NCBI GenBank assembly: GCA_044226015.1 | Contig: JBGAHS010000001.1 | Location: 320,001-384,000 of the forward strand | DNA: 64,000 nucleotides | Origin: Candidatus Obscuribacteraceae bacterium | GTDB lineage: Bacteria > Cyanobacteriota > Vampirovibrionia > Obscuribacterales > Obscuribacteraceae | Direction: 5' to 3' | Part shown: piece by piece, positions 15,001-24,000 of the stretch | Layout of the letters: every line of letters starts with the position of its first letter | Position numbering within the stretch: the first letter of the stretch is position 1 | Program-made: the position numbers

Positions 15001-18000
15001 TTGAACAAATGGTTCTGGAAATACTCGGAAGGAAGTAGGACAAGCTGTGCCTTTTGAACTGTATCTAACTCGCTCGTTTGTCCCCGTCATTGAACGAACT
15101 CTAGAGTCTGAGCTTCCCCCATTGACGAGAGAAGAATTTGAGCTCTTAATGGATGGAGCTCCTTTGCGTTCTACGATGGAAGACGGTACGAGATGGTTCT
15201 GGCATCCATCCGGGGTTCCGTGGATGAGCGTACAGTTTCATGAGCCATCCAAAGAACACACTTATATTTCGCTTTCAATAAGTTATTCGCACAATCAGTT
15301 TCTGAAAGTATGGGCTTCAGCTTTTGAGCTAGCTCTTCGAATGGCTAAGAGTGTTCAAGCAAGAATTTTCGAAGATTCTAACTTCTATGAAGTTGATGCT
15401 GAGCGGATACAAGAATTGTTGGCACCTGACGGTGACTTCGTTTCTGAGCAGGCAAAGTTCTGGGAGCAGAATGTGACCTTGATAAATTCACAAATGAAGG
15501 CTCCTCTAGAATACCCAATTGCAAAACATGATGCGGTTACCGATTACTTTGTTTTATTTCTAGAGCCGGAGAAAAAACTCTCGACTGAAGAGTTAGCAAA
15601 AAAGCTGAATCTGAATATCTCTGTTGGTTCACTTTCGTCGGACAGATTTGCCGTAGAAGATCCAAAAGATGGAAGTGTCCTCAGCCGCGCTTTGATTCGT
15701 CCTAACGATAGCGCCTGGCAAATATGGCCATTTTACTGGATGGAACCGTTCTCTCGCGTTGCGAAGGAAACGCTGGAACTTGCAAGCAAACTGCACGCGG
15801 AACTGGGTGGGTCCTTATTCTTCAGAGAGCAGCCCTTAACGAGCGAATTGAAGAACGAAATTTGCGATCATATAGATGGGCTTGGAGTCGAATTCTTTTT
15901 GTGGTGGCAAGAGCGCCAAAAAATTACTTCGAAATCATAATTGGAAATCGCTGTCCAAAATCTTTCTCGTCTGTATACACCCACACAGACAGGAGAAAGG
16001 CGCAAGTTGTCGCCAAAATTGCATACGTTTTTTGCAGCCCGCATGATTAGTGCGGGCTAAGCGGCTTTAGTAATTTCCGCACTTATATCGCTTTCTTAAA
16101 AATTCAACTCATAGACAGTGCATATGGGTTGAGTTTACATTCGCAATGTTAAGGGATTTATACAGCGCAAGCAAACACCGACCACCGCAGAATCTTGCGG
16201 TGTCTAGCTTGGCGCATGGCGGGGATAGCAGCATGGAAAAACCGACAGATCTTCAGCTTGCGAAGTTTGATAGCAACGCAGGACAACGCAGTGAGCATGA
16301 CGCTCTAATCAACAAAGTAGCCATGGAAATGGCCGGCGGAGACAGCAAAGATCTTATGAGCTTTAACAAAGCTCCAGAAAATACACTGACCCGCTATGGA
16401 ATGGCTACAACTCAGGGACTTCTCAAAGTACCTGAAGGAGTGTTCAATGCGGTAAAGCAGAATGTCCAAAACCCAATTCAAGCACTCGAGACTGTCGGTA
16501 TGGGTGCCGGCATGGCAGTGGTACTGAAAACGGTGCTTCCTGAGGGGGGACCCGCCGGAAAGTTGGCAGCCGGTGCCATTGGCGCGTACCTTACTTACAA
16601 GGCTGCTGAGCCTATAGTTGATGGCTTCAAACAAGCCGGTGCTGCAAGCACAATGAAAGAAATGGCAAGCGCTTCTGACCAAATCGGCAATGCTGGTGGT
16701 GCCTTCATTGTTGATTCAGCTCTTGCTTTTGGTGGCTATAAGCTTGGTGCTCGCTTGAGTGATAGAGCCTTTTCGACTTCTCTAGGCAAGTCGTTTACAG
16801 AAGCCAAAAATGGAATGTACGACAATATAGGTAACAAGGTTTCTGACGCTTTAGGAGTAACTTCAGGCAATACTGTCGTGACCCCATTTGGTCCGCGCAG
16901 TCTTGCACGCAACTTCACCCCAAGCGGATATGGTGTGATTCCTCCATACATGTTGCAAGAATTGTCAGTTCGAAATCCAGGAGTCGATGCATTCGCAAAG
17001 ACTCACAACGCAACTATCGATATGCAGACCAAGCCAGGTCAATTCAAGCCAAATGCTGCCGGAGCTGATGCTGCTGCACCAGCGGTGCGTGAAGTGTACG
17101 ACGCGAAGGGTCGTGAAACGCAGCCAGGAACCAAAGCGCGTTTTGAGGGTGAGAAACCCACAGGCAATGTAGAGGTTGATAACGGCTACGATTACACAGG
17201 ATTTGTTCGTGACTTTTACGCGAAGGAATACGGACGCAATTCGATTGATGGAAAAGGCATGAAGTATGTCTCTACTGTAAATTATGGTCAAAACTATGAA
17301 AATGCGTTCTGGGACGGCAAGCAAATGACATACGGTCATCCTAGCGCTAACAGTCCATTCCGCACATTCGTTATTCTCGATGTGGCCGGTCACGAAATCA
17401 CACATGGTGTTACCGAAATGGAGTCTGGAATGAGATATTTCGGACAATCTGGCGCCTTGAACGAGCACCTTTCTGATGTTTTTGGTGTGATGATTGAGCA
17501 GTATTCGAAGGGGCACACAGCAGATAAAGCTAACTGGATTGTTGGCGAAAAAATTTGGAAAGATAACATCAATGGACGCGGTCTTCGTGACATGAGAAAT
17601 CCGGGAACTGCCTATGATGATCCGGCTATAGGCAAAGACCCACAACCTGCGCACATGAATGACTACTACAAAACCTGGGGTGACAACGGTGGTGTTCACT
17701 ACAATTCAGGTATTCCAAACAAGGCTTTTGCTACATTTGCAATTGATGTAGGTGGAAACGCATGGGATGCACCAGGACATATCTGGTTTGAAGCTCGCAA
17801 AAATGCAGGTAGCAATCCTAGCTTTGGTTCATTCGCTGCACACACGGTTGAAGCTGCGAAGAAACTAGGCCACACTGAACTTGTTCCAAAACTGGAAAAA
17901 GCCTGGAACGATGTTGGTGTCAAACCAGACATCAACGCTACCGACACGACAACTCCAGGTGGAGGTCGTGGTGGTGATGACGACAATGTAGGTTTCATGC

Positions 18001-21000: not shown

Positions 21001-24000
21001 GGAGGGAGGAATCGCAGGCAAGTTGGCTGGTGCAGCCATAGGTGCATATTTTACGTACAAAGCCGCAGAACCAATTTTTGGTGCTTACAAAATCGCGCAC
21101 AATGCCACCACGATGTCTCAGCTAGATTTCGCGTCTAAGCAGATAGGTGAAGCTGGTGGTGCTTTCATTGTTGATTCTGCAATCGCTGCTGCGGGTTACA
21201 AGCTAGGGTCACATTACACAGAACGAGTCCTTAGCAGTCAATCGATGGATGGCTTCTCTGATGCAAAAGCGAATTTTTATTCCAGGCTTGGCGAGAGCGG
21301 TAAACGGTTTACTGACAGCTTAGGTGTCACCGCGCCCGACCAGAGTGGTCGGTATTCCTTTAAGAGTTCTGATGGATTGTCCAGCCGTGTTCGTTTGGGA
21401 GCCTCCGAGAGAACCGCTCCTAATGGAGTGTTGAAGGGTGAGCTGGACCCGACTGTTGAGATGGATGTCACCGTCATGCTCAAATCAAAAGGAAGCGATT
21501 TGCGTATGGATCGCACCCTTGCTCGAATTGCACAGGGGCGACAGGCGCCTTTGACAGAAGCACAATTTACCGAGCAATTTTCTGCAAAACCCGAGTCATT
21601 AAAAGCTGTGAGCCAGTTTGCTGAAACTAACGGATTGAAAGTCACTGAGTCAGACTTGCGTTCTGGTCGCGTTGTTTTGCACGGAAAAGTTGGCGATTTT
21701 TCAAACGCTTTTGAAACCAGGCTTGCCCAATATGAAAATTCAGGTTCAGTGTTTCGTGGACGCGAAGGTAGTTTGTCCGTGCCCTCAGATGTAGCTACAC
21801 ATATCGAGGGAGTTTTAGGGATGGACAATCGTCCTCAAGCGAGATCTTACGCAATAAGCAATTTGATAGAAGCGGAAAGACCGGCGATAAATAAGCTTGT
21901 GAATCCGAAAGGACCTGGTGATGTGCCTCCTTCCGGACCAACTCCGACTGAGCCAGGTCCCTCATTACCCAACGCTAAGCGTGGTGGTGTCATGCCAAAT
22001 GAAGTGGCTGATGCCTACAATTTTCCAAAGCAAACTACGGGTGAAGGTCAGGCAGTGGCGATTATTGAGCTTGGCGGCGGGCTTGATAAGGCTGAAAACA
22101 CTAAATACTACCAGCAGAATTCTTTGCCAGAGCCGAAGATCAATATTATTGAAATGAACGGAGTGAAGAACAAGCCTGGAATAGACTCAAGAGCAGACGC
22201 CGAAGTTCATTTGGATTCCCAGGTTATTGGTGTTGTCGCTTCTAAAGCTGAGCAGAATTTGATTTTTACTGAGAACTCAGACAAGGGGTTTATTGACGCT
22301 ATTACTCGTGCAACTTTCCCCGAGCCTGGTGATAAGCCCAGCTCAGCAATTAGCATAAGTTGGGGTGCGCCTGAAGAACTCTGGTCAAAACAGGGCATGG
22401 AAGGAATGAGTACTGCCTTGAAAAAGGCTGCACTCAAAGGTCTTTCGGTCTTCGCGGCGTCTGGAGATGATGGCGCTATCGACAATTCACGTTCTGGAAG
22501 TTTTCAGGTTGATTTTCCGGCATCTGAGCCTACCGTCACCGGCACTGGTGGCACCAGGCTGAATTTGAAAGATGGCGCTGTTGAGTCCGAAGTCGCCTGG
22601 AACAACGGCAGCAACAGCTCAGGTGGTGGTGGCGTTAGCCAGCAGTTCTCTATTCCCGAATATCAAAAGGGTGTAAATATTCCTGCCAATGCAAACAGAA
22701 GCGGCGGGGCCGGTCGTGGTGTTCCGGATGTTGCTGGAAATGCAGACCCCGTGACGGGCTATCGCATAAGAGTACCCGGCGGAGATTCGGTCACCGGCGG
22801 AACAAGCGCAGTTGCTCCACTATACGCTGCACTGACCATGCGTTTGAATGAAAGCCTCGGAAAACCGATTGGTAGTTTGAATCCGTGGCTCTACAAAAAT
22901 ACTGGAATATTCAACGACATTGTTCAAGGACACAATAATGGCTATAAGACTGCACCTGGTTGGGACGCAGTGACTGGTTGGGGATCGATCGATGGAACGA
23001 AAATGTTGGAAACATTGAAAACAAATCCGAATGTGAACCCCAGCTTTGGTCAATTTCAGTTTGTTGGTCCAAGTCAGGCTAACCTGCTTTCTCCACCAGA
23101 TCAAAGCCGTAAATAGGGATGATTCTCTATCACTAGTCAATCTTGCGATCTTGCCAGAAGAATCGTCTAGAAAAATACGAAGTCAGATTTTGCTGGACAA
23201 TGTCGACAAAAAGGGCGGTTCGAAAACCGCCCGAAAAGTCTCGGTGAATAATTTTTCCCGCTTGCTCAGCGAATGTGCCCGTTGGTTTTTAGCTGGCGAT
23301 GCAAATCATTGCGCCGAGTATGGCTGACGAAATGGCTCCCAGAGCAACTGTTGTTTTCAGTTTGCCTCTTACCCCTGCACCCAGCATGGGCAGCGCCAGG
23401 CAAGCAATTGTCAGCATTCCAGCGCTTACAATTGCGCTTGGTGTATACGGTACGTAGACGTTTCCAGCTTCGACGCATTTTGCCAGAGCAAATCCAAGCG
23501 CGAGCATGCCCGCGAACGATCCCGTCGCGATTACAACTCCCTTTGGAAGATTCCCTTCGTTTAGTGCCATTGCGTTTGACATAATGCAAATCCCTTTTGT
23601 TCTTAACCTTGACCCTATTGTAATGTTGAAAAGGGTTTTCTGCCTATTCTTGAAAACTTTCCAATCTACCAGTAGTCGGCTTTTTCGAGGTTCTGCTTTG
23701 GACAAAATGCAGTGTTTTTACTGGAGTCTTCTGCCTGAAGGTCTTGATAAACTTGCTGCTATTGGAAGCTGGGAGTTATGAAATGAAGCGAATACGCCGG
23801 TTTGCTTGTGCCGCCATTCTTTCGTGCACGTTGTCGATGAACTTTAATTTAGCGAATGCGGAAAAGCCACAAGCTCTAAGTGCGCTGGCCCAGATGCCTG
23901 TGAAGGAAGTAACTGTCTTCAAAGACGGGCACGCCTTCGTCATGCACGAAGGAAAAATGCCTACCGATGAGCAGGGCGATGTGTTGATGGATTACTTGCC

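Follow-up and report, generated by a model that had tools for sequence, protein, structure and literature searches.

What does one and the same N-terminal domain do in front of different enzymes? The question is raised by three neighbouring open reading frames on the plus strand of the window, the 64,000-nucleotide stretch of a Candidatus Obscuribacteraceae bacterium contig analyzed here. These reading frames, at 16146-18026, 18489-20321 and 20690-23116, encode two protealysin-like M4 proteases and one sedolisin. Their N-terminal cores are 60-68% identical, confirming the three adjacent members of the survey's finding, and the cargo parts behind the shared module are 27-28% identical between M4 and sedolisin, near the level of 23-24% for unrelated cargoes.

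All features located here lie on the plus strand. The first gene (16146-18026) encodes a module joined to an M4 metalloprotease, with 626 residues from the first ATG and the HExxH motif at 17391, but a start at 16233 is likelier because a G-rich stretch precedes it. Behind a hydrophilic N-terminus it carries a predicted leader helix of the LINKVAxE type (16296-16331, corresponding to model helix 4-17 in the homologous stretch), followed by the first copy of the helical Gly/Ala core (16371-16772, from profile search and alignment), by the motif PPYML, which we take to be the protealysin propeptide motif, together with the M4 catalytic domains (16941-17921), and by a basic C-terminal tail. The second gene, coding for another module-bearing M4 protease (18489-20321), probably starts at 18567 or 18573 and holds the second core copy at 18714-19115, located by the same means. 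Terminator-like hairpins of 14 and 13 pairs follow these two genes at 18080-18110 and 20354-20384, both as consensus matches only. The third gene (20690-23116, 808 residues) combines the third core copy (20831-21232; predicted model with pLDDT 87 over residues 20-210), a pro-kumamolisin activation domain as its own propeptide (21428-21829; PF09286, E 6e-19) and a sedolisin (S53) protease with its Glu/Asp, Asp and Ser motifs at 22202, 22460 and 22796. A fourth window member, at 41274-43355, joins a divergent module (core 41442-41870) to DJ-1/PfpI and repeats. Promoter-like sites at the locus were found at chance level only.

An HMM search iterated over all 28,231 open reading frames in the genome reached convergence with 23 members; among reversed-ORF decoys the best scored E 0.021. 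A wider profile added the member at C10:217731 (E 5e-7; best decoy 0.002) and a cargo search the one at C8:318274 (module match E 2e-20), bringing the total to 25 proteins. The shared domain of the survey's finding is therefore upheld and its count of 20 raised, while the concern that an unconverged profile had gathered weak false members loses its ground, since the decoys are far weaker. The module remains uncatalogued, no Pfam family matching any of the 23 domain copies below E 0.027. Its core spans some 135-146 residues rather than the 190 first estimated, the remainder being the leader helix and a tail restricted to the subfamily of the window genes. Matches at E<=0.001 now form 742 clusters at 50% identity, compared with 689 before, and in all of the 150 best matches the module lies near the N-terminus, as had been claimed. 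Its range is likewise wider than the six of 11 order genomes and none of 49 other class genomes recorded before: it was found in 26 of 32 other Obscuribacterales genomes, whereas a first pass over 118 other class genomes gave none. Weak relatives occur in Sericytochromatia and, within the class, in a second family (2 of 123 genomes). The number of matches per genome, from 0 to 26, points to large lineage-specific expansions. The literature covered, which takes in neither most subscription journals nor supplementary tables, yielded no account of the module and none of a type IV secretion system (T4SS) in Obscuribacterales.

The best-conserved member is a single-copy ortholog, syntenic in 20 of 21 loci, and for that reason looks housekeeping-like rather than effector-like. 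Its C-terminal part gave no match in five module-negative genomes, in a search run without a positive control.

Cargo recognized by Pfam follows the module in 14 of the 25 members and falls into seven types (six sedolisins, two M4, two HAD, and one each of DJ-1, trypsin, NADAR and PHP), which replaces the 20 different enzymes proposed earlier. All six module-bearing sedolisins carry a pro-kumamolisin domain and the Glu-Asp-Ser motifs, and the module-bearing M4 proteins have M4 catalytic domains with HExxH, a short propeptide motif and no signal peptide. The genome encodes 13 protealysin-like and 11 sedolisin genes in all. Since the two module-bearing M4 proteases fall within a clade of module-less M4 paralogs and carry modules 60-63% identical to that of the neighbouring sedolisin, sequence comparison indicates that the module has been shuffled between cargoes, a conclusion that holds. 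Among the 127 homologs, of 150, that were scanned for domains, 91 have no enzyme domain and none has an Ntox or nuclease Pfam domain; some cargoes (HD-type phosphohydrolases, FAD oxidase, ABM, GGDEF) resemble proteins of the cell's own signalling and metabolism. Three further modules share the same layout, with cargo that includes beta-amylase, isoamylase, patatin, PLD, EEP and Macro, and present no detectable homology to the module studied here (hhalign 1.3%, 0.5% and 18%).

According to sequence and model, these proteins open with a hydrophilic leader bearing a short amphipathic helix. Then come an amphipathic helix that closes in an H/N-P turn, two moderately hydrophobic helices that form a Gly/Ala-rich hairpin, an amphipathic linker and a third Gly-rich apolar helix; the enzyme behind them is intact, retains a propeptide of its own and ends in a Lys-rich tail. 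The surface of the module is Gly/Ala-apolar and not charged. The best 19-residue Kyte-Doolittle value has a median of 1.43 and reaches 1.6 in 4 of 23 copies, in agreement with the moderate hydrophobicity noted earlier. As with the previous model, which gave nothing above Z 5.4, there is still no clear fold match for the model of pLDDT 87: Foldseek returned none at E<=0.001 in PDB and BFVD, and the best VIA value, Z 5.8 (rmsd 5.1, 92 aligned), concerns unrelated proteins, a result from which it does not follow that the fold is new or different.

None of 150 homologs has a signal-peptide-like stretch upstream of the module, whereas 34% of the N-termini in the whole genome have one. The leader helix is common to roughly 90 proteins of the genome. 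Upstream of the module in homologs, the leader motif is weakly enriched (13/70 against 2/70 random genes) and detectable by position matrix only; unbiased three-letter motif enrichment did not find it, and simple regular expressions gave no enrichment there. At the other end, Lys occurs within the last four residues of 20 of 25 members, compared with 244 of 711 Lys-matched soluble proteins (34%, p 6e-6), a statistic picked after the sequences had been viewed. The same feature is seen in 71 of 125 homologs from other genomes, for which the background is this genome alone, and in 25 of 35 proteins at the relatives' loci against 54 of 115 neighbours. Because module-less M4 and sedolisin paralogs keep both leader helix and basic tail, the module itself is probably not the export signal; the modularity of the arrangement proposed earlier for interchangeable enzymes stands.

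As possible machinery for export, 32 of 32 order genomes encode a chromosomal T4SS with two VirB4 proteins and VirD4, their identity being 72-87%. The best models for its VirB4 proteins are of the F-type and CD1110-type (NCBIfam), with scores below their cut-offs; the Pfam family T4SS-DNA_transf exceeds its cut-off in this system, and the PF03135 profile misses these VirB4 proteins. The system may solely move DNA, because a Replic_Relax relaxase-like gene is part of it in 30 of 32 genomes and because it is retained in six genomes with no detected module. None of the members adjoins a secretion locus in this genome. Of 33 order genomes none yielded the type III export gate FlhA/SctV (FHIPEP), against 117 of 118 other class genomes, and this genome has no VgrG-type match. 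A type VII system was discarded as the exporter, with two weak FtsK-type matches only, one of them VirB4. Tad was rejected as well: one of its two loci is near-universal and the other occurs in 18 of 26 module-positive and one of six module-negative genomes, and therefore neither discriminates. Two sources (PMC6509941, PMC12981334) describe T4SS substrates as often having basic C-termini and moderately hydrophobic membrane effectors as evading SRP.

Six toxin-like proteins from Sericytochromatia, two of them with Ntox50 or colicin E3-type tails, provide a further clue. Aligned with the module profile, by which the six had been chosen, their pre-toxin region gives 91.6% in hhalign (E 8e-7, 113 columns), reversed and shuffled controls remaining below 1%. 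An independent set of 16 further homologs reaches 62% against the pre-toxin family, and the reciprocal toxin-family HMM recovers no member (best E 0.74). These alignments suggest a remote relationship between the module and pre-toxin regions in the polymorphic toxins of Sericytochromatia. The nearest ESM neighbours (PT-TG, DUF6861, MafB, LXG and P22 gp16, scoring 0.83-0.90) serve as leads only. The PT-TG HMM (PF14449; ESM 0.85-0.89) has no genome match at E<=10 and none on the 23 domain copies; that of DUF6861 (PF21724; ESM 0.90, 158 shared features) has four weak genome matches, none on members; and DUF4781 (PF16013) matches a distant relative, L073, at E 1.6e-5 with 24.4 bits, below its cut-off of 27.9, and no member here.

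The explanation that we favour, and for which we regard the case as evenly balanced, is that the module is a membrane-engaging add-on to enzymes that are exported for feeding or as effectors, with the T4SS as their most plausible route. The export or membrane role suggested in the survey's finding gains circumstantial support from the lack of signal peptides, the basic tails, the pre-toxin link and the order-wide T4SS. Module-bearing enzymes would bypass Sec/SRP and leave through an exporter of their own. The best candidate for it is the chromosomal VirB4/VirD4 system found across the order, and the features it recognizes would be the basic tail, the leader or both. The target is probably a eukaryotic microbe or another kind of prey, in whose cell the module would insert into or bind a membrane and hold there its protease, phosphatase, ADP-ribose hydrolase or other cargo. 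That these proteins are exported at all seems fairly probable; passage through the T4SS is conceivable, with chances somewhat short of even; and, given export, action on the target membrane appears distinctly likely.

The strongest competing explanation, although unlikely, posits no export and sees in the module a monotopic anchor that keeps enzymes attached within the producer, be it to the inner membrane, to lipid bodies or to a compartment inside the cell. Such an anchor would suit the signalling and metabolic cargoes (HD-type, FAD oxidase, ABM, HAD, DJ-1), the vertical inheritance of the syntenic member, the absence of linkage to secretion genes and the fusion of a Sericytochromatia relative to an ABC1 kinase, a family associated with lipid bodies. 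It leaves unexplained, however, the basic tails, the leader shared by module-less proteases, the lineage-specific expansions, the acid-type sedolisins, and the starch-degrading and lipase cargo on the parallel modules. It is improbable that the module is instead no membrane domain but, in the manner of BID or MIX, the part by which an export system recognizes the protein or a scaffold to which a chaperone binds for export. An N-terminal, all-helical unit of about 140 residues with variable cargo would fit this role, and BID offers a precedent for a helical T4SS signal domain (PMC6509941), but the leader and tail of the close module-less paralogs, the coexistence of four unrelated modules in the genome and the apolar surface argue against it. 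A classic antibacterial polymorphic toxin system, in turn, would accommodate the remote similarity to pre-toxin regions, the single emfourin inhibitor gene of this genome and the proposal (PMC9505478) that Serratia proteamaculans protealysin is an interbacterial effector delivered into other cells. We deem it very improbable because no immunity genes adjoin the members: 22 of 25 have no co-oriented ORF of 60-250 residues at -30 to 80 bp downstream (limits that leave room for longer or more distant partners), the small ORFs of the other three are unlike immunity genes, the emfourin gene (C12:75553) lies between unrelated genes and adjoins no M4 gene, and the scanned homologs have no nuclease-type toxin domain. 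Finally, it is scarcely credible that the module is a propeptide or folding chaperone common to these enzymes, or an artefact of Gly/Ala composition, even though it precedes proteases in 9 of 25 members and Gly/Ala-rich helices can attract false matches, for the module also precedes non-proteases, the decoys and the model speak against an artefact, and the propeptide reading raised earlier is excluded by proteases that retain their own propeptides and by close paralogs without the module (11 of 13 M4, 5 of 11 sedolisins).

The Obscuribacterales are large-genome, non-photosynthetic relatives of cyanobacteria, a common and poorly known group. The literature found on them consists mostly of water-system surveys, and we saw in it no account of secretion systems or effectors. 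The module offers a sequence handle on a possible secreted arsenal of the order, and following it up brought to light three more unnamed modules, a candidate leader signal and the T4SS found across the order. If the export explanation is true, these bacteria, for which no interactions are known, become candidate predators or parasites that would feed on or manipulate other microbes, and their modules a new class of effector membrane domains. More tentatively still, the order may comprise unrecognized predators or parasites of microbial eukaryotes that inject some 100 or more proteins by a core chromosomal conjugation-type T4SS. Those proteins would be recognizable by the short leader helix at the N-terminus and by a tail rich in Lys. 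Membrane modules of at least four unrelated, uncatalogued kinds, borne by about 60 proteins in this genome, would set proteases, amylases, phospholipases and ADP-ribose hydrolases on the membranes of prey, the T4SS serving in place of the flagellar/type III apparatus kept by the rest of the class. Even as an anchor, the module would represent a new and widely shuffled domain family worth cataloguing.

Several known systems resemble this arrangement in part. Chlamydial Inc proteins have a moderately hydrophobic two-helix hairpin and no signal peptide, but the Obscuribacterales have no type III export gate and the module has no sequence or fold match to them. The moderately hydrophobic transmembrane effectors of T4SSs likewise combine a two-helix hydrophobic hairpin with the lack of a signal peptide, again with no sequence or fold match. 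The pre-toxin regions (PT-TG, DUF6861, DUF4781 and the unnamed Sericytochromatia/proteobacterial family) are also N-terminal Gly-rich helical modules with variable enzymatic C-termini, and DUF6861 is presented in bioRxiv 10.1101/2022.08.23.504947 as a glycine-zipper membrane domain tied to toxin domains; polymorphic toxins differ, however, in that here no immunity genes adjoin the members and the cargo consists of proteases and other hydrolases, not nucleases. The Bartonella Bep effectors of the VirB/VirD4 system pair a modular helical domain, BID, with varied enzymes, and resemble the present case in their basic C-terminus and in a genome that encodes a conjugation-type T4SS, but BID is a C-terminal four-helix bundle, whereas the module here is N-terminal and apolar; BID has no Pfam match on members and no structure among the fold-search matches listed. 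Protealysin of Serratia proteamaculans, with its inhibitor emfourin, is similarly an M4 protease with a short propeptide of its own and no signal peptide, differing from the present case, with its 13 paralogs, one unlinked emfourin and an extra module on two of them. Lastly, in the same class, the predation model for Vampirovibrio chlorellavorus set out in PMC4451040 proposes that hydrolases enter algal prey through a T4SS, which is there T-type and partly plasmid-borne, while the one described here is chromosomal and order-wide.

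The three adjacent open reading frames (ORFs) share a common N-terminal domain, in agreement with the survey's finding, and Pfam identifies Peptidase_M4 and M4_C in two of them (16146-18026 and 18489-20321, protealysin-like) and Pro-kuma_activ in the other (20690-23116, a sedolisin). Identity is 60-68% among their N-terminal cores and 27-28% between the M4 and sedolisin cargoes. Since a hairpin (by consensus match only) lies downstream of each gene and gaps of 370-460 bases separate them, the three look like separate transcription units. An iterated HMM search of all 28,231 ORFs of the genome (G000) converged at 23 proteins, with a best E-value of 0.021 for reversed decoys, and two further divergent members raised the total to 25. 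Hence, the family reported by the survey stands, its size of 20 proteins does not, and the common core spans only about 135-146 residues instead of ~190; the claim that no Pfam model matches the module was upheld by Pfam search. The loci of close relatives are labelled Obscuribacterales or Melainabacteria in 12/12 cases.

Cargo recognised by Pfam is present in 14 of the 25 members and comprises seven types, not the 20 different enzymes initially proposed. By inspection, one additional member carries an HExxH zincin motif, one a tail that we take to be kinase-like and one motifs presumably of the glucoamylase type; the remaining members are short or carry cargo of no recognised identity. Catalytic motifs are intact in 6/6 sedolisins, 2/2 M4s and the trypsin member. 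Among the 127 of 150 homologs scanned (the 23 left out being mostly short), 36 present an enzyme domain: sedolisin (16), HD (5), DJ-1 (4), trypsin (4), NADAR (2) and M13, S9, PHP, FAD oxidase and ABM (one each). The architecture is modular. G000 encodes 13 M4 and 11 sedolisin genes, of which two and six, respectively, bear the module; in the trees, the two module-bearing M4s pair (91/88) and are nested (91/98) among M4s that lack the module. Four sedolisins lacking it also cluster (92/95); none of these supports is starred. Given these groupings and counts, the module is gained or lost independently of its cargo.

Several further features were recorded. The C-terminus of the DJ-1 member (window 42700-43355) contains near-perfect ~60-aa repeats, the last of which shifts frame, possibly through an assembly error. 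A signal-peptide protein without Pfam match (window 23744-25564) is conserved immediately after the sedolisin gene in four relatives' loci (L060-L063). Giant ORFs of 8062 and 5065 aa (contigs C10:380473-404661 and C11:406378-421575) adjoin module genes. A ~1000-aa member with the zincin motif (C8:263353-266130, L007) is single-copy with order-wide synteny (L020-L038): of 21 loci picked by length from the order-genome matches, 20 have it as a syntenic ortholog. Its usual flanks are genes that we take to be fabG and panB, and a presumably ADP-ribosylglycohydrolase-like gene adjoins it in 10/21 loci.

The module is present, with 1-26 matches per genome, in 24/30 genomes of the Obscuribacteraceae and 2/2 of the sister family; a search of 118 other Vampirovibrionia genomes returned none; its reported absence from the rest of the class thus held at first pass, and its spread within the order is wider than the six of 11 genomes first described. 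A phylum sample of 300 yielded four weak matches: another family of Vampirovibrionia accounts for two, and the separate class Sericytochromatia for the other two, which are ABC1 kinase fusions. Once weak hits joined the profile, 8/41 Sericytochromatia genomes were matched, and six of these hits are toxin-like proteins (L081-L086), two with an Ntox50 or colicin E3-type tail; a small ORF comes after five of the six. For the module profile, from whose building all six had been left out, alignment with the pre-toxin region of these proteins reached 91.6% (E 8e-7, 113 columns); reversed and shuffled targets stayed below 1%, and the reversed profile itself, used as target, gave 15%. An independent set of 16 homologs, collected by searching from the toxin side and including one named Burkholderiaceae, gave 62%. 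As the reciprocal HMM search from the toxin side to module members fails, this relationship is probable, not proven. The pre-toxin domain family (L081-L086; P0162-P0181), itself without Pfam match, comprises toxin-like proteins of Sericytochromatia and zincin fusions of ~300 aa, one of which comes from Burkholderiaceae.

G000 also has three families (6, 19 and 10 members) built on different Gly-rich modules, again N-terminal and in the same layout, with no detectable homology to the module described above. Their cargoes (20 proteins scanned, Pfam hit in 12) include beta-amylase, isoamylase, patatin, PLD, EEP, GGDEF, DUF2252, Macro and esterase. The 6-member family (C1:2235, C8:585767, C9:341547, C9:460922, C11:612466 and C6:639559) has one fusion to GH14 beta-amylase. 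The 19-member family (e.g. C12:553790, C11:32448 and C11:1116092; L092, L095 and L093) joins a ~210-aa Gly-rich module to isoamylase, PLD, patatin, GGDEF, EEP and others; it occurs in 28/32 order genomes and 0/118 others, with 17-19 matches in two genomes of 2.8-2.9 Mb (G015 and G021). The 10-member class (C1:291291, C3:226171, C11:111335 and seven more) combines a leader, a short N-terminal helix, with a single hydrophobic helix ahead of Macro, esterase and receiver-like cargoes. Another small family shares an acidic Gly-rich N-terminus (C6:260439, C9:162892, C9:407524 and C1:350135).

Regarding candidate exporters, FlhA/SctV was found in 0/33 order genomes examined, against 117/118 other class genomes, and no VgrG-type domain was found in G000 (92% complete). 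The FHIPEP search gives two matches in most other Vampirovibrionia genomes, which suggests that these may possess a non-flagellar type III system in addition to the flagellum. G000 encodes two Tad loci, a type IV pilus system and, scattered on the chromosome, a type IV secretion system (T4SS) with two VirB4-like ATPases, a VirD4-like coupling protein and a Replic_Relax gene (T4SS/conjugation genes at C1:182285-185976, C10:63035-71022 and C10:82065-86783; L040, L059 and L041), as well as proteins without Pfam hit read by eye as VirB2-, VirB3-, VirB6- (three paralogs) and VirB8-like. The system is conserved in 32/32 order genomes, across which the first VirB4 is 72-87% identical. In G000 two in-frame stops, absent from relatives, interrupt this VirB4; since public contigs from two studies, both possible sources of this DNA, disagree with the assembly at both codons, the interruption is probably an assembly error. 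Co-occurrence of module and T4SS is at order level, and both a relaxase-like gene in 30/32 genomes and retention of the T4SS in six module-less genomes (two also without the 19-member family) count against a role in protein export.

No signal-peptide-like stretch precedes the module in 150 homologs, against 34% of N-termini genome-wide. For the leader helix (type S-x-L-x-x-E-A), a position matrix derived from 27 unrelated N-termini gives 141/5406 proteins a score above 9, including 25 from the training set; after shuffling the count is 50. The helix occurs in held-out module-less paralogs (4/5 sedolisins, 3/9 M4s), upstream of the module in 13/70 homologs against 2/70 random genes and, separately, in the 5065-aa giant ORF. 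A Lys-rich C-terminal tail, a statistic picked after the sequences had been looked at, is found in 20/25 members against 34% of matched background (p 6e-6), in 71/125 homologs and, in relatives' loci, in 25/35 members versus 54/115 neighbours. Published work describes C-terminal signals that are short and either positively charged or hydrophobic in most T4SS substrates (PMC6509941), membrane effectors whose moderate hydrophobicity evades SRP and which may reach the T4SS directly (PMC12981334), protealysin as not secreted into the medium and requiring a delivery system (PMC9505478), and a T4SS proposed as the route for Vampirovibrio hydrolases into Chlorella (PMC4451040).

An AlphaFold2 model from 108 sequences is all helical (pLDDT 87, pTM 0.68), and fold searches with it found no matching structure. 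Column statistics delineate an amphipathic first helix followed by an H/N-P turn, two Gly/Ala-rich apolar helices with a P/K-x-G-G turn between them and, after a polar linker, a third apolar helix bearing conserved glycines; the module is moderately hydrophobic, with a best KD19 whose median is 1.43 and which is at least 1.6 in 4/23. We judge it an even call that the proteins are exported, with the T4SS as the probable route, and that the module would engage the target membrane. That it anchors proteins to the producer's own membrane is rather unlikely, and a signal scaffold is more doubtful still. A classic antibacterial toxin system is improbable, because no immunity-like genes were found beside module members and the sole emfourin gene of G000 (C12:75553-75882) is unlinked, in a genome with 13 protealysin-like proteases. 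A propeptide or artefact is very improbable, the propeptide being ruled out because the cargo enzymes retain propeptides of their own. If the proteins are exported, both the starch-degrading cargo carried by the parallel modules and the missing immunity genes suggest that the target is eukaryotic or otherwise not kin. We found no published account, in the open-access literature excluding supplements, of the module, of its repertoire rich in hydrolases and free of immunity genes, of the parallel modules or of the order-wide T4SS; the joining of an N-terminal module to interchangeable enzymes is a known principle.
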